A DNA stretch of 32,000 nucleotides, from contig NC_010546.1 of assembly GCF_000017845.1 (NCBI RefSeq), forward strand, positions 4,770,001-4,802,000, given 5' to 3'. Within the stretch, counting starts at the first letter, position 1. Each line of letters begins with the position of its first letter. Below, one piece after another: positions 3,510 through 27,701 of this stretch. The translations under genes were made by a program, and so were the position numbers. Below the pieces are notes generated by a model. That model did not search any database. It was not told where the DNA came from and was given only the letters and a program-made list of their open reading frames with translations. Origin of the DNA: Crocosphaera subtropica ATCC 51142 (GTDB taxonomy: Bacteria > Cyanobacteriota > Cyanobacteriia > Cyanobacteriales > Microcystaceae).

Positions 3510-6500
3510 TTAGATAATAAAGTTACCTAAATTATTCAATTCAGTGGTTTCAACTCCTAAAACAAAAAGGAGTTTTTTCGATTTAGCTTCCTCTGAAAAC
3601 CCATCAGAATCAACGGTCACAAGAGTACCTATACCACGAGAAACAAAACCCAGATAACCTTCTGCGATCGGATCAATCCCTTCAAATTCAATCTCATCTA
3701 AAAGTTGACTCAGATCAATTGTGTCTTTACCGACTTGAAAATCAATCAAGATGTCTCTACCATCTTTTAAACCAGTGTAGACGATAGTATCTTCGCCACC
3801 ACCACTAATAATAATATCCCGACGTTCAAAACCTGTGATTCTATCATTATGGTGAGTTCCTAGAAGAAAATCGCTCCTACGGGTTCCTTCAATGATATTA
3901 GGAGGGGTTTCAAAAGTAAAACTAGCCAACACTGGATCATGATCGCTTGCAAGGGACTCTGTTGCTGCAAATTCAGAATTGATATTCACAATATCAATCT
4001 CAGCATTATTGAATAAACTATCACTGACTAAAATATGATCCAGTTGTTGAGAGTTTCCTTGGAAAATAAAGCTATATCGCTCATCTTCAGCAATATTATT
4101 GACCAAGTTGCTTAAAACCGCATCACCACCTGTGATCGTCTCCTGGCCATTGTTGGTACTTTCTAGGGTTCCTTCTAAAATTGGTAAGGGTGAAACGAAC
4201 TCAAACTCGTTTAAGTCTCCTAACACCACAACATTTCCATTGGGATCGTTACTCAAAACCCCGTCAACAAAATCGTTGACTGCTTGTGCTTGTTCTCTAC
4301 GTTCATTCAGAGAACCATTAACCGTGATATCTTCTTGACGAGCAGCAAAATCTTGTTCAACTCCGAAAATGGGTGCGCTACCCCCTTTTGAGGAAAAATG
4401 GTTATTAATAACGGTGACAATTTCCCCCTGAAATTCAAAGTCAACCGCTAAGGGTAAACGTGCGCCGTTGAAGGGTTCCCCAGATACTTGTGAGCCAATG
4501 GGTTGCACCGAAGCAACGCTCACTTGATTAGGATCATAAAGATAAGCAGTACGAATATTACCCCCAGGTTGACCCCCACTTTGATTATTGGTGATAAAGG
4601 TGTTATCGATAAATTCGTATTGAGGACCACCAGCATCAACGATAGCATCTACCAACCGTTGCAGCGTTTGATCAGCCGAAACAGTTCCATCGTCAACGGA
4701 ACCACTGTTATCTTGGATTTCCTGTAAACCAATAATATCGGGACTGTTGAGATTATTGATAATTTGTTGAGCAATGGTATCAAAGCGGCCATCCGCTACG
4801 TCCGTATCTCCGTCGTTATCGTTGGGATCAAGGTTCAATACATTGTAGGTAGCAATGGTTAGGTTATCCACTGTATTGTTAATCGTGGTGGTTTCTGGAG
4901 TTAACCCGGCAGATTGAATATTCCCAGTAAAGTTAACAGTTGGCACAATTTGGAAATTACCAAAGTCGTAACTAATCACCCCAGTCACATCCCCTAAACT
5001 GTCTCCCGTATTCACTTCTGGATTATCAAAACCAGACACATCAAAATCGGTGTCAATTTGGATTTTTTCGGGGTTGAAATCATCAGAACTAATATTCAGG
5101 GTTCCTCGTTGACTAATTCCGGTGGTGTTGCTGCCTTGGTTAGTAACTGCGAAAATTTCCCCAAAACGATTAGTCCCTGACACAGCGACTAAATCCTCTG
5201 CGGTGACTAACATCCCTTCTAAGGACTCGAAAAAGTCAATGCCATCATTAACCGGATCAAAAGATGTAAAGGCATCATCATCGATATGAGTAGAGGGTGG
5301 AATTCGTCCACCAGTACCGATTACAGTGGCTACAGGAAGCGCATTCCCTTGAGAAAGGGTAGAAATAGTCGGACCACTAATTTGAGTGGTGGATAGGTTA
5401 CCGGTGCTAACACCACCAGGAACAAATTCTGAAACCGTTCCCGTCACTTCTAATTCATCTCCGACCATAACCCCCGGTGCGCCATTGGTAAAGACGAAAA
5501 TCCCATCTGAGGTAGCTATGTCACCATCTCCTGCGGGATCTTGTAGATAAAATCCGTTATTATCCACTGCGGTAACAATCCCTGTGGTGGTAACGGTCGT
5601 CCCTTCTAAAGTAGAAGTGTGACTGGTTCCTTGAATCTCGTAGATAAACGTCATTTCAGCAGGGGGAGGCGTAGAAGACTCGTTAACACTGCCGGGGGTT
5701 GGGGTTTGAGCAATAAAAGACCCTGTTGCATCGGGAACCCGACTGAGGGAGTCGTTATCGTCTCCATTGGGCCCTGAGTTTTCGTTAAATTGGATAGTTT
5801 GTCCTAAACCATTGAGTAACTCTGCGTCATCAGCATCGTTGGTGCCATAGGCGATCGCATCGATTAAATTACTTGAGGTGACGGGGGTTCCACTAGGGAA
5901 GTCTGAAGCATCCCCTGCGTATAAAGCAACCGCATCCGCTCCATTTTGCAGACTATTGGTGGTAAAGGCCACTAAATCAACATTCGGCACCATAGCACTG
6001 CCAATGACAAAAAATCCTTCAGGGTTAGTGGTTTGACCGTCAAGATCGATGGCATTGTAAGATACATCGCCGTTCCCGTTGTACAAGACCACCACTAAAC
6101 CATCCAGGGAGGTATTACCCACGCCACCGTCATAGAGTTCGATAAATTCAACAGAATCGGTTCCAGGGGTATCGCTATCAATTTCATTAATGATTACATT
6201 GGCCACAGAACCCCCTGTGGTTGCTGAGGTTGGGGTGTTAGCTGACCCTAAAAAGAAATCGCTGATTACCCAATCACTGGCTTGATCTGTATCTACGCCA
6301 TCGTTCACCCGTCTAGCGCCGGCCGGGAAAAAGGAACCATCTGGTCCAATCACTGGAGTCCCAAAGAAAAAGGTATCCCCGATATCCCCATCCCTTAGTG
6401 CAACGGCATCAAGAACTGCCTCACTCCCTGTCACTGTAGTCCCAGACAAACTGCTGGTTTCCACTAGGGCAAAGGTTTGACTACTATTTTCCAGAAAGTT

Positions 6501-16066: not shown

Positions 16067-16182
<116 letters not shown>

Positions 16183-16310: not shown

Positions 16311-17810
16311 ATGTCAGAACAAAAAAAAGTTGTGGTTGTGGGGGCTGGTTGGGCTGGTTTAGGCGCAACTTATCACTTAGCAAAACAAGGGTACGATGTG
16401 ACTTTATTAGAAGCGTCTCCTTATCCTGGGGGATTAGTTGCTGGTTGGAAAACTGAAGACGGTAAATCCATAGAAGCAGGAATTCATGGCTTTTGGTATC
16501 CTTATAAAAATATTTTTCAATTAGTCAAAGAATTAGGGTTAAATCCGTTTACAAATTGGACTCGTTCTTCTCAATATTCTCCTGCTGGTTTAGAGGTAGA
16601 ATCCCCTATTTTTCAAGATAAACCCCTTTTACCGACTCCTCTAGGAACGTTTCTATATACTAAGTTTCAACGGTTACCTTTAATTGACCGTTTATCAGCA
16701 TTACCTTTACTTTATAGCTTACTGGATTTTGATAATTCTCCTGAAGCTTGGGAACGATATGATAAAGTCACCGCCAGGGAATTGTTTAAACAGTTTGGCG
16801 TATCTTCTCGTCTCTATAAAGATGCTTTTGAACCCATGTTATTAGTGGGTTTATTTGCCCCAGGAGAACAATGTAGTGCAGCAGCAACATTAGGGATGCT
16901 CTATTATTTTATCCTAGCTCATCAACCGAATTTTGATGTAGTTTGGTGTCGAGGAACCGTAGGTGAAATGATTTTTAAACCTTGGGTAGAAAAAATAGAA
17001 ACTTTAGGAGGTAAAATTTTAACCAATAAGCGAGTAACTGATATTATTATTAATAATAAAGGAACAGCCAAAGGGGTTATGTGTGATAATGAAATATTTG
17101 CCGCCGATGCCGTAATTTTAGGGGTTAGCATTAATGGAATTAAAAAGATAGTAGCAAAAAGTAAGGTTTTAAATCAGTACCCAGAATTTTATAATTTATC
17201 TAATTTAGGGGGAATTGATGTTTTAGCGACTCGCTTATGGTTTGATAAAAAAGTTAACATTCCTTTGCCATCTAACGCTTGTTTTGGCTTTGATAAAACC
17301 ACAGGATGGACATTTTTTGATCTCAATAATCTTCATGATGAATATAAAAATTTATCGAGAAGTGTTATTGAGGCAGATTTTTATCACGCTAATCAACTAT
17401 TAACAATGAATGATGAACAAATTATTAACAAAGTTCATCAAGATTTAACCACTTGTATTCCTGGCTTTGCTGATGCTAAGATTGCAGATAGTCGTGTGAT
17501 TAAAGTTCGTCAAGGAGTAACCCACTTTGCCCCTGGTAGCTATCAATATTTACTCCCTGCAAACTCTCCCATCGCTAATTTATACTTAAGTGGAGATTGG
17601 GTTATTACAAATCATGGTTCTTGGTCACAAGAAAAAGCTTATGTGACTGGTTTAGAAGCTGCTAATTTAGTCATCAAACAATTGGGGGGACATCCTGCTA
17701 AGATTATTCCTGTAGAACCCGATGAACCCCATATTCATCTAGGGCGAGTCATTAACCAGAATGTGCGTAAAATAATTAATGATATCATTCCCCAGTTTTG
17801 GCTACCTTAA
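16311..17810 (+). CDS. FAD-dependent oxidoreductase of the amine oxidase/phytoene desaturase superfamily
   Basis: 499 aa. N-terminal dinucleotide fold VVVVGAGWAGLGATYHLAKQGYDVTLLEASPYPGG. C-terminal LYLSGDW flavin motif. Confidence 0.8.
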   Translation: MSEQKKVVVVGAGWAGLGATYHLAKQGYDVTLLEASPYPGGLVAGWKTEDGKSIEAGIHGFWYPYKNIFQLVKELGLNPFTNWTRSSQYSPAGLEVESPIFQDKPLLPTPLGTFLYTKFQRLPLIDRLSALPLLYSLLDFDNSPEAWERYDKVTARELFKQFGVSSRLYKDAFEPMLLVGLFAPGEQCSAAATLGMLYYFILAHQPNFDVVWCRGTVGEMIFKPWVEKIETLGGKILTNKRVTDIIINNKGTAKGVMCDNEIFAADAVILGVSINGIKKIVAKSKVLNQYPEFYNLSNLGGIDVLATRLWFDKKVNIPLPSNACFGFDKTTGWTFFDLNNLHDEYKNLSRSVIEADFYHANQLLTMNDEQIINKVHQDLTTCIPGFADAKIADSRVIKVRQGVTHFAPGSYQYLLPANSPIANLYLSGDWVITNHGSWSQEKAYVTGLEAANLVIKQLGGHPAKIIPVEPDEPHIHLGRVINQNVRKIINDIIPQFWLP

Positions 17811-18228: not shown

Positions 18229-19332
18229 TTATTCTTCAGGAAAAATTGCCCCCCTTTCTAATAGATTGGTTTGGATTTCTGGGGTCATTCCCTCATTATT
18301 GCCAAACTTAGACCCTTGTACTAAAGCACCACTTAAATTGGTTTGAGTCAAGTTAACTTCTTGTAAATTAGCCCCCCTTAAATCAGCCCCAATTAAATTA
18401 GCTAACGCCAGACTACTGCGGTAAAAATCTGCTTGTTGTAAGTTGGCATTACCTAAGTAAGCCCCACTGAGATCAGCCCCACTAAACCGAGTATAACTTA
18501 ATATAGCCTCACTCAAATCAGCATCGGTTAAATTCGCCCCTCGAAAATTACTGTGAGTTAAATTTGCCCCACTTAACTCAATACCACTTAATTCTGTGCC
18601 TAAAAAATTGCCTCCTGCTAAATCAATTTTAGAATTTAATCCTGCAATTTTAATTAATTCTAATAAATTGTTAGTTTTAATATCATAAATGTTATTAATT
18701 AATTGATGTAAATCAGCAAGGTGTTGTGGTTCAACATTAGTGGTAGGACTATCTATTTTTTTGACTTCTAATGCCTTAGAGGTTAATTGAATCATAGAAA
18801 TTTCAGGAGACAGTCTTTGTTTCCACAAAAATTGAGCCAGTTTCCGTTCTAAAATACTATGTTTATTGGGATGGATATCATGTCGCCATAACCCAGTGAT
18901 ATCGGTGATAGAAATATCTGCTAAATTAATCGTATAAGAGATATTAACCTTAACCGATTCATCGGTAGGTTCAATCGTGGCTAAGGAACATGAATTATCA
19001 ATTTTGAGGGTAGATTGTCCTGTTTGAGCAATTAAATGCCATATCGTACTTTGATCAGAAGAGTCTATTAACTTAAACGGTACATCACTATTGAATTGAG
19101 GTTCAATGAGCTTTCCTTGTTGTACTATTAGATTAAGTTTACCCCCTTTGATACCAAACCTAATTTGACCATTGAGTAAGGATTTTTCCTGTTCATTGAA
19201 GCGGAAATTTAACTCTAGGGTAAATTGCCCCTGAGACGTTGCTGATGGTCTGGGGGTGACTTGAAGAAAAACGCACTTTGGATAAGGATTATAAGCGGTG
19301 TGGAGGTGGAGAGAGGGGGCTGATTCCGACAT
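18229..19332 (-). CDS. Pentapeptide-repeat protein with an unknown N-terminal domain of about 240 aa
   Basis: The C-terminal 120 aa are consecutive A(D/N)LxX pentapeptides (ANLTHSNFRGANLTDADLSEAILSYTRFSGADLSGAYLGNANLQQADF...). Confidence 0.85.
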   Translation of the reverse strand: MSESAPSLHLHTAYNPYPKCVFLQVTPRPSATSQGQFTLELNFRFNEQEKSLLNGQIRFGIKGGKLNLIVQQGKLIEPQFNSDVPFKLIDSSDQSTIWHLIAQTGQSTLKIDNSCSLATIEPTDESVKVNISYTINLADISITDITGLWRHDIHPNKHSILERKLAQFLWKQRLSPEISMIQLTSKALEVKKIDSPTTNVEPQHLADLHQLINNIYDIKTNNLLELIKIAGLNSKIDLAGGNFLGTELSGIELSGANLTHSNFRGANLTDADLSEAILSYTRFSGADLSGAYLGNANLQQADFYRSSLALANLIGADLRGANLQEVNLTQTNLSGALVQGSKFGNNEGMTPEIQTNLLERGAIFPEE

Positions 19333-22687: not shown

Positions 22688-24154
22688 GTGACATTAATTA
22701 TTGCTGGCGATCGCAGTGGAACAGGCAAAACAACGATAACCTTAGCTTTACTAGCATTTTTAAGACAAAAATCGGCCAAGGTTCAATCCTTTAAAGTGGG
22801 TCCCGATTATATCGATCCTATGTTCCACAGTTATATCACAAGTCGTCCCTGTCGTAACTTAGACCCAATTTTGACCTCTGTGAGCTATGTCAAATCCTGT
22901 TTTGAGCAACATTGTCACGGGGTTGATTATGCTCTGGTTGAAGGGGTTATGGGGTTATTTGATGGGGTTCCTTTGAAGAAGGCGATCCCCCCATACCCCC
23001 CTTTCCAAAGGGGGACAGGCAGGAGGCAGGAAATAGAAAATTTTTGTCAGGATTATGGAAGTACGGCACATATTGCTCGAATTTTAAATATTCCTGTGGT
23101 TTTAGTCATTGATTGTAGTCGGTTATCGGGATCGGTGGCGGCGATCGCTCATGGATACCGTTCCCTTGATCTCAATATTAACCTTGTAGGAGTGATTTTA
23201 AATCAAGTGGCAAGCGATCGCCATTTGACCTTACTTGAAACCGCTTTAAATCCTCTGAATCTACCGATTTTAGGGGTTATTCGTCGTCAAGAAGATTTGA
23301 CCATTCCTGATCGCCATTTAGGGTTAGTTCCCACTGATGAACTTTCAGAATTGAATCAGTTTATTGATAAGTTAGCTTATTTGGCCCAAACTTGTTTTAA
23401 TTGGGAGCAACTTTTGCCTTACCTTACCCCATCACCCTGTCATCTTTTGAAGAAGGCAGAATATCATCCCCCCATACCCCCCTTAGTCAAGGGGGGTATG
23501 GGGGGATCGATCAAAATAGCGATCGCCAAAGATAAAGCGTTTAACTTCTATTACCCTGATAATCTAGACATTTTAGAACAGTTAGGGGCGACAATCTGTT
23601 ACTGGAGTCCTCTAAAAGATGAAACCTTACCCGAAGGCACTGTCGGGCTATATTTTGGGGGTGGCTTTCCTGAAATGTTTGCAGAAGCTTTATCGAGGAA
23701 CCAAAACGCTTTAAATGCGGTTAAACAAGCGATTATCAACGGAATGCCCACCTATGCTGAATGTGGGGGATTAATGTATCTGTGTCAGGAAATTGTTGAT
23801 TTTAAGGGTAAATCCTGGCCAATGGTCGAGATTTTACCCACAACGGCTAAAATGGGGCAGAAATTAACATTAGGCTATCGACAAGCCATCGCTTCTGGTT
23901 CAAGTTTTCTGTTGAAGCAAGGGGACCCTATTTGGGGTCATGAATTTCATCGCTCTCAATTAACCCATTCTCCTGCTCAACCCATCTTTAACCTATCGAG
24001 TTGGCAGGAAAATAGCCCTCGTTATGGGGAAGGATGGCACCTTTATAACCTCCATGCATCCTATCTCCATCTGCATTTTGGGGGGTGTCCCCAGATAGCT
24101 GAAAAATTTTTTTGTCACACCCTTGATTTTTTTAGAAACCTTGCGTTAGACTAA
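22688..24154 (+). CDS. cobB: Cobyrinate a,c-diamide synthase (CobB/CbiA), carrying two in-frame repeat-derived insertions
   Basis: GTG start. P-loop GDRSGTGKTT, EGVMGLFDG, GSTAHIA, and the C-terminal glutamine amidotransferase domain (AECGGLMYL, GHEFH). Confidence 0.9.
   Translation: MTLIIAGDRSGTGKTTITLALLAFLRQKSAKVQSFKVGPDYIDPMFHSYITSRPCRNLDPILTSVSYVKSCFEQHCHGVDYALVEGVMGLFDGVPLKKAIPPYPPFQRGTGRRQEIENFCQDYGSTAHIARILNIPVVLVIDCSRLSGSVAAIAHGYRSLDLNINLVGVILNQVASDRHLTLLETALNPLNLPILGVIRRQEDLTIPDRHLGLVPTDELSELNQFIDKLAYLAQTCFNWEQLLPYLTPSPCHLLKKAEYHPPIPPLVKGGMGGSIKIAIAKDKAFNFYYPDNLDILEQLGATICYWSPLKDETLPEGTVGLYFGGGFPEMFAEALSRNQNALNAVKQAIINGMPTYAECGGLMYLCQEIVDFKGKSWPMVEILPTTAKMGQKLTLGYRQAIASGSSFLLKQGDPIWGHEFHRSQLTHSPAQPIFNLSSWQENSPRYGEGWHLYNLHASYLHLHFGGCPQIAEKFFCHTLDFFRNLALD
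22972..23030. repeat. G/C-rich palindromic element, degenerate copy, translated in frame within cobB
   Basis: TTTGAAGAAGGC, then CCCCCCATACCCCCCTTTCCAAAGGGGG, then a diverged right arm ACAGGCAGGAGGCAGG. It encodes LKKAIPPYPPFQRGTGRRQ. Confidence 0.7.
23446..23505. repeat. G/C-rich palindromic element, intact copy, translated in frame within cobB
   Basis: TTTGAAGAAGGC, then perfect 17-bp arms CCCCCCATACCCCCCTT / AAGGGGGGTATGGGGGG around AGTC (23468..23505). It encodes LKKAEYHPPIPPLVKGGMGG. Confidence 0.8.
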
Positions 24155-24480: not shown

Positions 24481-24563
24481 TCTATTACTGTGGGCTTAAT
24501 TTAGCCTTGGTAGCTTAATCACTGTGCTTGATTAAACTTTACATTGCGCAGCAGATTAAAGAC

Positions 24564-27500
24564 ATGGCCAACAATAATAGTGTAATTTTCATTCATCCTG
24601 ATGGAACCAGTCCTTCCCATTTTATGGCTGGACGCTTGGTTTCCGTCGGTCCTGATGGTCTTCTTAATTGGGATAGGATGACCAAGGCAGGGGTTTACCT
24701 AGGACACATGGAAGACCAACTGGTGGGGACTTCTAATGCAGGGGCTGTAACTCATGCCTTTGGCATTAAAGCTTTCTCTGGTAGCTACGGTTTAGACGAA
24801 AACGGGAATCCTTACACTTCTCTTTCTGGTCAAGAAGGCATGACCATTATGGAAGAGGCGATCGCAGCCGGAAAAGTTACTGCCGTGATCAACTCTGGAT
24901 TCATTGCCGAACCCGGAACCGGGGTTTTCCTGGCAGATACCGAAAATCGAGGTAATGTAGAAGAAATCACCTTAGAAATCGTCGAATCTGGGGTGGATGT
25001 GATTATGGGGGGTGGTGAAATTCACTACTTACCCGAAGGAGTGACGGGACGCTTTGGAGAAGAAGGAATTCGCGAAGATGGACGGAACCTGATCGAAGAA
25101 GCCCAAGCAGACGGTTACACCGTGGTTTACACCCTCGAAGAGTTAGCCAATTTACCCGCTAATACCGAGAAAGTTTTAGGGATTTTTGCAGCAGAAGACA
25201 CCTACAACGACACCACAGAAGCTAGATTAAAAGAGCAAGGCTTTGAGGATGAACAAGGCAATTTAATCCTCTATGGTCAACCCGGAAACGAAAATCCTCC
25301 CACCGTTTCCCAAATGCTAGAGGCAACTTTAGGGTTAGATATCTTTCAAAATCCTGAGAATGGAATGTTTGTGGTGCTAGAAGAAGAAGGCACCGACAAC
25401 TTTGGCAACAATAATAACGCAGCCGGCACCATCGAAGCCGTTTTACGAGCCGATGCGGCCATCGGTGTGGCTCAAGACTACATCGATAATGTTAACCCTC
25501 ATACTTTGTTAATCACGGCCGCCGATAGTGATGGGGGTGGTTTAGAAGTCGATGATCGTTCAGGGGAAACCGTCGGCACCACCAGAGTACAACCCCCCTT
25601 CGATCCCGATCCCAGAGTTCCCTACGATGGCACTACAGGGAACGATACCGCTCCTTTTGTCACCGGCCAACCGGACGCTAATGGGGACACCTTTGAATTT
25701 GGAGTGTTATGGTCTGGAAACCCCGACGTAGCAGGAAGTATTGTTTCTAAAACCTACGGGTTAAACGCCGAGAAACTCCCGGCCACCGTGGACAACACAG
25801 GGATTTATCGCTTGATGTACGAAACCCTATTTAATGTTGCTTTAGATGCACCAGAAGGGATTCCTGATGAGATTCCTGAACCCCCTGCACCCACTAAAGA
25901 GACAGGAAACGTCATCTTTATCCATCCCGACGGCACCAGTCCCTCCCATTATGCGGCAGCTCGTTTTTCCTCAGTGAGTCCCGATGGTCGTTTGAACTGG
26001 GATAATATGACCGATGCCGGGGTTTATCTCGGTCACATGGACGATCGCATTGTTGGCACTTCTAATGGGGGTGCAGTGGTTCACGCCTATGGGATTAAAC
26101 CCTATGCTGGCAGTTACGGGTTAGATGCAGATGGGAACCCTTACACCTCCTTATCCGGGTTGGAAGGAACCACCATTATGCAAGAAGCGATCGCAGCAGG
26201 GAAACCCACGGCAGTGATCAACTCTGGCTTTATCGCCGAACCCGGCACCGGTGTTTTCCTCTCAGCAGCAGAAAATCGTAGCAACGTTCAAGAAATTACT
26301 CTAGAAATTGTTGAATCCGGTGTTGATGTGATTATGGGGGGTGGTGAAATTCACTATCTACCCGAAGGAGTAACGGGACGCTTTGGAGAAGAAGGAATTC
26401 GCGAAGATGGACGGAACCTGATCCAAGAAGCCCAAGAAGATGGTTATACCGTGGTTTACACCCTCGAAGAATTACTCAATTTACCCACGAATACCGAGAA
26501 AGTCTTAGGGATTTTTGCAGCAGAAGATACCTACAACGACACCACAGAAGCTAATTTAGTTGAGCAAGGTTTTGTCAATGAAGACGGCAGTTTAATTCTC
26601 TACGGTCAACCCGGTAACGAAAATCCTCCTACCGTCGCCCAAATGCTAGAAGTCACGTTAGGGTTAGATCAATTTGTTAATGCCGAAGACGGCTTCATGG
26701 TGGTTCTCGAAGAAGAAGGGGCCGACAATTTTCCCAATAATAATAATGGGGCAGGTGCCATTGAAGCAACGCTACGGGGAGATGCTGCCATTGGAGTAGC
26801 CCAAAACTTTGTTCGCAATGTTAACCCCAATACGTTAGTCTTAACGGCTGCTGATAGTGATGCTGGTGGTTTAGAAGTGGATGACGTATCCGGTGAAACT
26901 GTGGGGAGCGTCACTGTTCAGGGTCCTTATGAAAACCGAGTTCCCCGTGACGGTGTGGAAGGGAATGATGGCACTCCTTTTGTCACGGGCGCACCGGATG
27001 CCAATGGGGATACGTTTGAATTTGGCCTAGCTTATGCCAGCACCACCGATGTCGCAGGTAGTATTGTTGCTAAGTCATTCGGTTTAAATTCTGACCTCTT
27101 AAAAGCCACAGCAGACAATACGGATATGTACCGTATTATGTACGAAACCCTGTTTGGGGTAGCTCCTGAAGACGTAGAACGATTTGATCCTGTCGCCTTT
27201 GGGTCTGCTGAAGATGACTTTTTTGATACGGTGATCTCTGGTAGTGACTTTGTGGGTGCAGCGAATCAACTTCTCTTTGCTGGCAGTGGCAATGACTATG
27301 TGGACGTTTCTCAGACTCCCGATGCGTTTAATCGTATTGACTTGGGCAGTGGTGATGATCTGTTCTTTGCTGGAAGTGGCGATCGCATTCTAGCTAGTTC
27401 TGGAGATGATATTCTCTTTTTGGGTTCTGGTGGTGATAATGTCGTTACAGGAGGTTCCGGAAGCGATCAATTCTGGCTTCTTACTGACTCAGAAGATTTA

Positions 27501-27701
27501 CCAACTATGGCGAATACTATCACTGATTTTGCCATTGATGAGGATGTCATGGGCTTTGGTGCTACTGATCTTGATTTTGATCAGCTAACCTTAACCCAAG
27601 AAGGTAATAGTACAGTGATCAACGCTTTAGGACAGGATTTAGCCATCTTATCCAATATTCAAGCCAGTGATTTAAGTGCTTCTGATTTTGTCTTTGCTTA
27701 A
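24564..27701 (+). CDS. phoA: Atypical alkaline phosphatase with a tandemly duplicated catalytic domain and an RTX-like C-terminal module
   Basis: Each half carries IFIHPDGTSPSH, VGTSN(A/G)GAV.HA.GIK (compare PhoA TDSAASATA), VVLEEEG.DNF and TAADSD.GGLE. The C-terminus has AGSGNDYVD, LGSGDDLFF and GGSGSDQFW repeats. I prefer the ATG at 24564 (MANNNSVIF) over the TTG at 24528. No signal peptide. Confidence 0.8.
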   Translation: MANNNSVIFIHPDGTSPSHFMAGRLVSVGPDGLLNWDRMTKAGVYLGHMEDQLVGTSNAGAVTHAFGIKAFSGSYGLDENGNPYTSLSGQEGMTIMEEAIAAGKVTAVINSGFIAEPGTGVFLADTENRGNVEEITLEIVESGVDVIMGGGEIHYLPEGVTGRFGEEGIREDGRNLIEEAQADGYTVVYTLEELANLPANTEKVLGIFAAEDTYNDTTEARLKEQGFEDEQGNLILYGQPGNENPPTVSQMLEATLGLDIFQNPENGMFVVLEEEGTDNFGNNNNAAGTIEAVLRADAAIGVAQDYIDNVNPHTLLITAADSDGGGLEVDDRSGETVGTTRVQPPFDPDPRVPYDGTTGNDTAPFVTGQPDANGDTFEFGVLWSGNPDVAGSIVSKTYGLNAEKLPATVDNTGIYRLMYETLFNVALDAPEGIPDEIPEPPAPTKETGNVIFIHPDGTSPSHYAAARFSSVSPDGRLNWDNMTDAGVYLGHMDDRIVGTSNGGAVVHAYGIKPYAGSYGLDADGNPYTSLSGLEGTTIMQEAIAAGKPTAVINSGFIAEPGTGVFLSAAENRSNVQEITLEIVESGVDVIMGGGEIHYLPEGVTGRFGEEGIREDGRNLIQEAQEDGYTVVYTLEELLNLPTNTEKVLGIFAAEDTYNDTTEANLVEQGFVNEDGSLILYGQPGNENPPTVAQMLEVTLGLDQFVNAEDGFMVVLEEEGADNFPNNNNGAGAIEATLRGDAAIGVAQNFVRNVNPNTLVLTAADSDAGGLEVDDVSGETVGSVTVQGPYENRVPRDGVEGNDGTPFVTGAPDANGDTFEFGLAYASTTDVAGSIVAKSFGLNSDLLKATADNTDMYRIMYETLFGVAPEDVERFDPVAFGSAEDDFFDTVISGSDFVGAANQLLFAGSGNDYVDVSQTPDAFNRIDLGSGDDLFFAGSGDRILASSGDDILFLGSGGDNVVTGGSGSDQFWLLTDSEDLPTMANTITDFAIDEDVMGFGATDLDFDQLTLTQEGNSTVINALGQDLAILSNIQASDLSASDFVFA
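24579..27161 (+). repeat. Intragenic tandem duplication, period 1329 bp (443 codons): unit 1 at 24579..25838, unit 2 at 25908..27161
   Basis: VIFIHPDG at codons 19 and 462 of the track ORF. GATTATGGGG at 25001 and 26330. The units are colinear throughout, with one 2-codon indel near the end. Confidence 0.9.

Follow-up and report, generated by a model that had tools for sequence, protein, structure and literature searches.

Palindromic repeats translated within two variable loops of CobB in Crocosphaera subtropica, and similar hairpins in other bacterial phyla

Background

How does a G/C-rich palindrome come to lie twice within the open reading frame (ORF) of a biosynthetic enzyme, and need it serve its host in order to remain there? 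The question is raised by cobB, the gene for cobyrinate a,c-diamide synthase, in a 32,000-nt stretch of Crocosphaera subtropica ATCC 51142 (NC_010546.1, positions 4,770,001 to 4,802,000; hereafter the window, with positions counted from its first letter). A preliminary description of the window, made from its letters alone, proposed that a mobile or recombinogenic palindrome had entered this gene twice, each time behind the same 12-mer and in one shared frame, and had been exapted as coding loop sequence. Comparison of the gene with its orthologues, and of the palindrome with other genomes, leads us to a different history. The simplest reading of the alignments is that the insert at the second site is an ectopic intragenic copy of a block from the first, native flanks included. 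We regard as probable, with real room for doubt, the whole account in which the palindromes would be passenger copies of a small hairpin repeat, housed in permissive loops and block-copied between them, with no host function required.

Results and discussion

Two palindromes in an intact gene

The features of the window that bear on this history, all on the forward (+) strand, are:

22688..24154, +, cobB (cobyrinate a,c-diamide synthase), 488 aa, intact, host of both repeat copies
22972..22983, +, 12-mer TTTGAAGAAGGC at site 1, native cobB codons (L-K-K-A), homologous to orthologues that lack the palindrome
22984..23016, +, site-1 insert, a 33-nt half palindrome GATCCCCCCATACCCCCCTTTCCAAAGGGGGAC reading (A)IPPYPPFQRG(T), its ends ambiguous by ~3 nt
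23443..23465, +, flank of site 1 as copied to site 2, TCTTTTGAAGAAGGC, with the 12-mer at 23446-23457, and an 8-nt spacer, from local alignment
23466..23507, +, site-2 perfect palindrome of 42 nt, ATCCCCCCATACCCCCCTT-AGTC-AAGGGGGGTATGGGGGGAT, translated to HPPIPPLVKGGMGG, with 19/19 complementary arm positions

The assignment of ORF 22688-24154 to cobB stands: it matches the CobB equivalog model NCBIfam NF002204 over its full length (562.5 bits against a cutoff of 254) and contains the Pfam domains CbiA (PF01656) and GATase_3 (PF07685), with the catalytic Cys. The P-loop (G7-T16), C359 and H418-E419 fall in invariant columns of an alignment of 32 CobB sequences, and dN/dS against six orthologues, loops excluded, is 0.11-0.24. 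Given these invariant motifs and this dN/dS, cobB is, as far as its sequence can tell, functional and under purifying selection; a pseudogene, which the preliminary description had named as grounds for giving up its proposal, is ruled out by dN/dS. Both copies are translated without a stop and the downstream frame is kept, so that the ORF remains open as first described. The closest relatives are Crocosphaera/Cyanothece-type cyanobacteria, at no more than 86% identity, among which the synteny of recA and cobB is retained. An assembly artefact is unlikely: an independently assembled Logan contig, possibly built from the same reads (L228, SRR26036489), is identical to the window over the entire gene, and diverged orthologous copies are present in two relatives, L001 and L002. 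A sequence search found no solved structure for any CobB relative.

The sequence CCCCCCATACCCCCC occurs three times in the window (22987 and 23468 on the forward strand, 23491 on the reverse), where 0.04 occurrences are expected by chance, and all three lie within cobB. The second copy is indeed a perfect hairpin, longer than originally reported, with 19-nt arms at 23466-23484 and 23489-23507 closing on an AGTC loop; as RNA its 91-nt context has a predicted fold of -47.9 kcal/mol (z = -7.2), which bears out the strong mid-gene mRNA hairpin that had been proposed. It does not qualify as an intrinsic terminator, since CGATCAAAATAG rather than a T-tract follows the hairpin, and a terminator scan made no call there. 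The first copy was correctly described as a left arm with part of a right arm: the left arm is complete, the right arm stops after G5, and what can pair is an 8-bp inner hairpin, CCCCCTTT-CC-AAAGGGGG (22985-23014), whose RNA fold is no better than that of shuffled sequences (z = 0.13). The claim that the palindromes are read in one frame does not survive. The 12-mers lie 474 nt apart and alone share a frame, while the palindrome arms are offset by 481 nt (481 mod 3 = 1), so that copy 1 is read ATC CCC CCA TAC CCC CCT (peptide IPPYPPF) and copy 2 CCC CCC ATA CCC CCC (peptide PPIPPL, within HPPIPPL); the Y of the one against the I of the other follows from this difference of frame.

The 12-mer itself proved not to be repeat DNA. 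TTTGAAGAAGGC does occur exactly twice, at 22972 and 23446, as had been noted, and two matches arose in only 1 of 100 shuffles. At site 1, however, orthologues without the palindrome have homologues of it (TTGGGGAAGGCA in L006, TTGGAGAAGGCA in L004, CTAAAGAAGGTA in L237), and its codons correspond to VPL[K/G/E]KA in such relatives. An alignment of orthologues to fix the insert boundaries, as the preliminary description had advised, places a 33-nt insert at 22984-23016 relative to L004; excising it leaves LKKAGRRQEIE, a match to LEKAGGRRQETE of L004, which marks the 12-mer as native and the insert as a truncated palindrome. On this comparison the 12-mer at site 1 belongs to the coding sequence of cobB proper and is no part of the repeat. 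HIP1 (GCGATCGC) was considered as an insertion target and set aside, the empty alleles having AAGGCAGG and not GATC at the insertion point.

Block copying from site 1 to site 2

If the 12-mer is native at site 1, its presence at site 2 calls for an explanation, and the relatives offer one. The sister of the window, L002, carries at site 2 a decayed copy that aligns better with site 1 of the window than with site 2 of the window: 83% identity over 52 nt, with a score of 34 against a shuffled maximum of 17. This match spans the native left flank, the GGCGATC junction, the truncation of the right arm and a downstream A.AG.CA. Within the window, site 2 aligns with site 1 at a score of 27 (shuffled maximum 19), and site 2 of L003 agrees with the heptamer block at site 1 of its own sister, L004, in 33 of 34 positions (score 32 against 16). 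Similarity between the two sites was absent from the other nine genomes compared. The half palindrome is common to site 1 of the window, site 1 of L001 (same position, 27/30 identical) and site 2 of L002. The simplest reading of these alignments is that site-1 blocks were copied to site 2 at least twice independently, once with the half palindrome, and the double insertion initially envisaged gives way to site-2 blocks that look like copies of site-1 blocks together with their native flanks.

The perfection of the site-2 hairpin has to be fitted to this history. The dS between window and L002 is 0.345, and the rough probability that 38 neutral stem positions would stay unchanged is ~0.002 (e^(-0.17 x 38)); since such a dS predicts decay of the stem, the perfect palindrome is best taken as a derived, renewed state. 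We propose the following sequence of events. A copy whose right arm was already truncated stood in the loop after GLFDG, as comparison with L001 (same form, same position) shows. In the ancestor of the window and L002, a block of ~50 nt from site 1, made up of CCTTTGAAGAAGGC (native codons), the half palindrome and A.AG.CA downstream of it, would then have been copied into the interdomain linker, replacing most of an older octamer array; similarity supports the event, and its direction is our interpretation. In L003, copying of the same kind would have occurred independently and without the palindrome. Finally, the site-2 copy of the window would have regained perfect symmetry, either through synthesis templated by the hairpin itself (snap-back or template-switch) or through conversion by a full copy, while that of L002 decayed.

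Recent recombination between window and L001 at site 1 was considered and rejected, since similarity in the flanks does not exceed the average for the gene. Among the alleles of the window, L001-L006 and L233-L237, those of the window, L003 and L236 have LKKA-type blocks at site 2.

Two permissive, hypervariable loops

Both inserts lie where CobB varies most. Copy 1 stands between the conserved GLFDG and STAHIA motifs, where the preliminary description gave homologues a short loop; the length of this loop runs from 8 residues, in distant cyanobacteria, to over 40, and is 31 in the window. Copy 2 stands just upstream of GATase_3, which begins at residue 276, hence in the linker before the amidotransferase domain as first stated, and this linker is as variable as site 1. 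Among orthologues of 60-86% identity, each of the two sites holds from 0 to ~35 extra residues. The protein model that had been recommended as a check for surface loops (AlphaFold2, pTM 0.78) gives coil with a predicted local distance difference test (pLDDT) score below 50 at residues 97-119 and 249-271; these segments coincide with the inserts, which would therefore sit in predicted disordered loops. Variable among orthologues and coil in this model, both loops are taken as structurally permissive, disordered segments, and the protein would carry the inserts as floppy surface loops.

What occupies the two sites in relatives, and what appears to be left of it in the window, is as follows:

Site 1, L004: GGCAGGA x9
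Site 1, L002 and L005: GCAGGGA array
Site 1, L003: AAGGCAA x3
Site 1, L006: no array
Site 2, L004:3772-3819: TCACCCCG x6, perfect, 48 nt, translated SPRHPVTP x2
Site 2, L001, L005, L006, L233 and L234: degenerate octamer arrays of the same length as in L004
Window 23018..23031, +, heptamer GGCAGGA x2, leftover of the site-1 array of relatives
Window 23424..23439, +, leftover of the ancestral interdomain-linker octamer array (TCACCCCG)n

The translated octanucleotide array in the linker of Crocosphaera-clade CobBs is constant at 48 nt even where its units are degenerate. Candidate decayed palindromes at site 1 of P0007, P0015 and P0016 were set aside, their DNA being too ambiguous to call.

A wider class of ~45-nt palindromes

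The palindrome is not peculiar to cobB. A scan for the 17-mer CCCCCCATACCCCCCTT over one genome per species (596 Gb) returned at least 120 stretches; all figures given below for the class refer to the hairpin-bearing copies, 61 in number, among the matches listed. These share the architecture AAAT-C6-ATA-C6-TTT, a loop of ~3 nt, and AAA-G6-N3-G6-ATTT, with a canonical length of 45 nt (range 42-47 nt). Their left border is sharp: AAT is present in 57 of the 61 copies, and there is no conservation past position -5. The ends are AAT/ATT in general and GAT/ATC in cyanobacteria, and the copy in Microseira ends with the same CGATCCCCCCATACCCCCCTT as the window. The hosts comprise Nitrospirota, Nitrospinota, Omnitrophota, Desulfobacterota, Spirochaetia, Dadabacteria, Aminicenantes and Acidobacteriota, Chloroflexota, Paenibacillus and the cyanobacteria Microseira and Okeania, and a related variant of the palindrome occurs in Gallionella. 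Several copies are found per metagenome-assembled genome (MAG), at unrelated loci, and a single locus of 8 kb can hold as many as 5 more members, which differ in their internal triplets. Two Nitrospirota MAGs, MAG050 and MAG117, are among the genomes of high copy number.

With the same palindrome class at many unrelated loci in other genomes, a repeat-family origin of the cobB palindromes is supported by sequence comparison. As for the mobility that the preliminary description had supposed, the occurrence of the class at multiple loci per genome elsewhere speaks for it, whereas in the host clade (69 kb, below) the palindrome was seen only in cobB. Spread of the wider class between loci might be due to a trans-acting enzyme that recognises the hairpin, which is our leading guess. 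It is possible, though we lean slightly against it, that the cobB palindromes are the cyanobacterial edge of an undescribed cross-phylum family of ~45-nt ORF-compatible mini-elements, colonising essential genes in frame and presumably moved by a hairpin-recognising enzyme that crossed phyla. Keyword searches of the literature found no published description of the repeat and gave only work on Rickettsia palindromic elements (RPEs), repetitive extragenic palindromes (REPs), transposable elements of the miniature inverted-repeat kind (MITEs) and GC clusters; its sequence is printed in none of the papers searched.

No recurrent protein family was found near the repeat by all-against-all clustering of 1842 ORFs from the 120 loci listed, and Rfam, applied to six class-bearing loci, gave tRNAs and sub-threshold miRNA-hairpin noise only. 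Phage carriage was rejected, as the 101 matches in viral collections come from a small number of redundant phage sequences that lack the hairpin architecture. A link between heptamer arrays and palindromes across the class was likewise dropped (2 of the 61 copies against a background of 0.8%, not significant).

Several individual occurrences deserve record. In an Omnitrophota MAG, Zod_Metabat.338, the exact 17-mer is present at 11 or more separate loci (L027, L056, L059, L073, L090, L091, L095, L098, L107, L113 and L116); most of these copies measure 46-47 nt, their right arm is asymmetric (GGGGGGATTAAGAGGGGATT), and the majority lie outside genes. In six delta-proteobacterial/Desulfomonilaceae MAG loci (L018, L030, L082, L115, L122 and L126) a conserved unit of ~28 nt, C(C)GCGCAGAACGCGGGATTGCCGGTCAAA, precedes the palindrome, which suggests, from sequence, a larger composite repeat in those genomes. 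At L065:~4760-4880 (Cyanobacteria bacterium UBA11372), C6-ATR-C6 is arranged in tandem with the unit GGGGGAAAGCTCATCGCCCCCCAT(A/G)CCCCCC, unlike the single hairpins elsewhere.

In-frame residence in other genes

At least 17 of the 61 copies lie within genes that Pfam recognises, where they are flanked or enclosed by domains. The host genes include those for a class-III aminotransferase, a P-type ATPase, an SLT/TPR protein, HypF, a Ser/Thr kinase sensor, PurL, MutL, a ferredoxin-domain oxidoreductase, a GT9 glycosyltransferase, a WD40 protein, HemC, CarA, RibD, chorismate synthase (AroC) and an E2 acyltransferase (in its flexible linker), and the Gallionella variant lies inside MetRS and GatB. 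Alignment to solved structures gives an insertion of 29 residues in HemC where E. coli has 3, and one of 29 residues in CarA where E. coli has 5, the latter again in a linker before the amidotransferase domain. Copies are read in all three frames, and the arms of the repeat are unable to encode stop codons. Of 12 in-gene copies, 10 have a length divisible by 3, compared with 4 of 12 copies elsewhere, a difference that is significant only as far as so small a sample allows (Fisher two-sided p ~0.04). Being stop-free and frame-neutral and giving a Pro/Gly-rich loop peptide, the repeat can survive in coding DNA.

The cobB palindromes would then be passengers (42-45 nt; C6-N3-C6, a short loop, G6-N3-G6) that persist in two disordered segments, and which would suit a coding context by their stop-free arms, a canonical length that is a multiple of three, and a Pro/Gly-rich, turn-forming peptide.

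Imperfect heptamers adjoin the in-gene palindromes of HemC (GGGTCAA/GGGTCAG/GGGTAAG, L019:~2285-2310) and CarA (CAGAATT/CAGAAGT x2, L069:~4225-4250), both in Nitrospirota, echoing the situation in cobB. An ORF of the Prismane/CO-dehydrogenase family at L098:1619-2980 starts at the palindrome and matches profile positions 158-512 only; here the element, judging by this partial match, may have disrupted or frame-shifted the gene instead of being read through.

Weighing the alternatives

A number of observations sit uneasily with the passenger account. The loop alleles are discordant with the cobB tree: L001 shares the site-1 copy and yet belongs to a different subclade from the window, and site 1 of L002 resembles that of P0002 and P0003. 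The history consequently needs losses or inter-lineage recombination, and the allele pattern, as far as alignments go, suggests inter-lineage recombination or repeated gain and loss. Identity between the site-1 copies of window and L001 is 90%, against a difference of 44% at fourfold sites, for which a purely neutral old insert is insufficient. As regards a repeat family, there is no other C-run/G-run hairpin outside cobB in the 32-kb window and ~37 kb of relatives (69 kb); the host genome is absent among the matches listed (at least 120 stretches); and metagenome collections contain only 4 matches to the GATC-ended 20-mer of cyanobacteria. With the repeat restricted to cobB in the host lineage, an active dispersed family in the host genome is unsupported. 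Ascertainment of the class by an exact 17-mer limits what can be claimed of its breadth and of homology as opposed to convergence, and about half of the CCCCCCATACCCCCCTT matches listed lack the hairpin, where by our own calculation ~70 chance matches are expected in 596 Gb. We found no transposase, no target-site duplication and no strain-level pair of empty and filled sites.

Some of these points bear on rival histories as well. Two independent insertions of a REP- or MITE-like palindrome, perhaps targeting a sequence like TTTGAAGAAGGC, as the preliminary description had it, would fit a class that is multi-copy at unrelated loci with a sharp border; a fresh insertion could also be expected to be complete and perfect, as the site-2 copy is in comparison with the truncated one at site 1, and the 12-mer stands 1 nt from the palindrome at site 1 but 8 nt from it at site 2. 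But site 2 of L002 shares with site 1 of the window the flank, the GGCGATC junction, the truncation and A.AG.CA, and site 2 of L003 has flank and heptamers with no palindrome, from which it follows that the flank moves alone; coupled with the lack of a target-site duplication and of any other copy in 69 kb of the clade, this makes independent insertions unlikely. We give slightly less credence to a local origin de novo from slippage-prone DNA, by quasi-palindrome correction or template switching, with the cross-phylum resemblance a matter of convergence. Tandem hepta- and octanucleotide arrays do fill both loops in relatives, including the C-rich TCACCCCG at site 2, the repeat is rare in the clade, and the hairpin-free half of the 17-mer matches listed is near the number expected by chance. 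Convergence would nevertheless have to produce the AAT/ATT ends, TTT/AAA stem base, 3-nt inner loop and 45-nt length that the hairpin-bearing matches share across phyla, and the CGATCCCCCCATACCCCCCTT end common to Microseira and the window; moreover, the heptamers of site 1 are purine-rich and have no C-runs, yet it is this site that holds the older copy.

Exaptation, in which the inserts would be kept for their use, as a regulatory mRNA hairpin tuning cobB or a functional Pro/Gly loop, was the interpretation initially offered and goes unsupported. It could account for an exceptionally stable hairpin that has stayed perfect though a dS of 0.345 from the sister predicts decay, and for site-1 copies of window and L001 that are 90% identical against 56% at fourfold sites. 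On the other hand, the site-2 copy of the sister L002 is decayed and its site-1 copy absent, other close relatives have heptamer or octamer arrays, unrelated sequence or nothing in loops that are hypervariable even between sisters, the segments are predicted to be disordered, and the two copies are read in different frames. Residence of the class in at least 17 unrelated genes elsewhere argues for tolerance and not for a role specific to cobB, and we consider exaptation quite improbable. That the element is not translated at all, the ribosome bypassing it or the mRNA being relieved of it, has a precedent in the bypassed GC-rich coding palindromes of Magnusiomyces (PMC8811140) and could draw on the strong mid-gene hairpin. 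Against this, both copies are stop-free and keep the frame, ordinary translation yields a full-length CobB with every conserved motif, and lengths in multiples of 3 for 10 of 12 in-gene copies are expected of translation, not of bypass; we attach hardly any weight to it.

Of passenger copies carried from loop to loop by block copying, then, the cobB case would be a clean, datable example of repeat DNA turning into protein sequence, in which hairpin and tandem-repeat DNA collects in two permissive loops of an essential enzyme and passes from one loop into the other by ectopic copying. Taken alone this is modest, and the cross-phylum 45-nt ORF-compatible class is the more interesting lead. If the class were confirmed, selfish DNA in coding genes would no longer be a curiosity of Rickettsia and organelles and would commonly give rise to Pro/Gly-rich indels in conserved proteins across many environmental bacteria. 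Alignment, phylogenomics and MAG annotation would be affected in practice, as assemblies break at such repeats and spurious small ORFs arise from them; a hairpin-specific mechanism of mobilisation or repair would also be indicated.

Other repeats in the window

Elsewhere in the window, a perfect heptamer array, ACTCCTG x4.9, lies at 16106-16139; read from the opposite strand its unit is CAGGAGT, which is close in sequence to GGCAGGA of cobB, and the array is intergenic, ~170 nt upstream of ORF 16311-17810. At 18364-18402 there is a tandem repeat of 15 nt, TAAATTAGCCCCAAT x2.6. The 1057-aa ORF at 24528-27701 contains an internal tandem duplication of ~1.33 kb, giving two repeats of ~440 aa that are 71-76% identical at the nucleotide level (e.g. 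24582-24881 vs 25911-26210).

Comparison with known repeat systems

Palindromic repeats in frame within genes are already a documented kind, represented by RPEs, intragenic REPs and mitochondrial GC clusters. RPEs are palindromic and are translated in frame in many unrelated Rickettsia genes (Ogata et al. 2000, as outlined in PMC10969869). The same summary describes residence in unrelated metabolic and housekeeping genes, an extra peptide compatible with the fold, and no transposase of their own, likenesses that extend to the element considered here, which is in frame in cobB (two copies) and in at least 17 other genes. It gives RPEs, RPE-1 to RPE-10, a length of ~100-150 bp and a range confined to the genus Rickettsia (PMC10969869), whereas the present palindromes measure 42-47 nt (42-45 nt for the cobB element), have C6/G6 runs, encode Pro/Gly-rich peptide and are spread over several phyla (cyanobacteria, Nitrospirota and others). 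If the class is real, it would be a much smaller and far more widespread counterpart of RPEs.

REPs of the GTAG/CGTC type are stem-loops of 20-40 nt, mostly intergenic, of which a minority lie in known genes, adding 20-30 residues and in some ORFs occurring twice, with Cyanothece among their hosts (Di Nocera et al. 2013, PMC3733652). The size, the stem-loop form and the minority in genes are shared; the unpaired GTAG/CGTC tag is absent here, the ends being AAT...ATT (57 of the 61 copies listed) or GAT...ATC. REP-associated tyrosine transposases (RAYTs) are typically single-copy per genome; as to an association with one, no family recurs near the repeat in the 120 loci listed, to which the survey was confined. 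MITEs are no closer match: excision of the 33-nt site-1 insert leaves no duplicated flank, there is no conserved direct repeat beyond the AAT/ATT ends, and no parent insertion sequence lies near the 120 loci listed. Nor does the window contain a match to any Rfam 15 family at the gathering threshold, which places the element outside all of them.

In Nostoc, small dispersed repeats (SDRs; attributed to Elhai et al. 2008) are said to be very small, hairpin-containing repeats that vary in presence and absence at orthologous sites and can nest in other repeats; they reportedly measure 21-27 nt and were described in heterocystous cyanobacteria. By that description, they may be related in kind to the cobB palindrome. 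G-rich heptamer arrays (short tandemly repeated repetitive sequences, STRRs) are also documented in Nostoc, where they are under-represented in coding DNA (PMC4692102); the cobB palindrome likewise adjoins GGCAGGA heptamers, but the arrays of cobB are translated.

Mitochondrial GC clusters, known in yeast for the polymorphism of var1 and in Magnusiomyces as byp clusters that are bypassed and not translated, resemble the cobB element as short G+C-rich palindromes in an A+T-rich genome that can lie in frame, serve as hot spots of conversion and recombination, and cause polymorphism in protein length (PMC8811140). They differ in being organellar and eukaryotic, in having terminal AG/TAG repeats taken as target duplications, and in that some are bypassed (PMC8811140); there is no sequence relationship. 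The cobB element works like RPEs, intragenic REPs and GC clusters, but it bears neither the tag that defines REPs nor the size and host range that define RPEs, and so belongs to neither.

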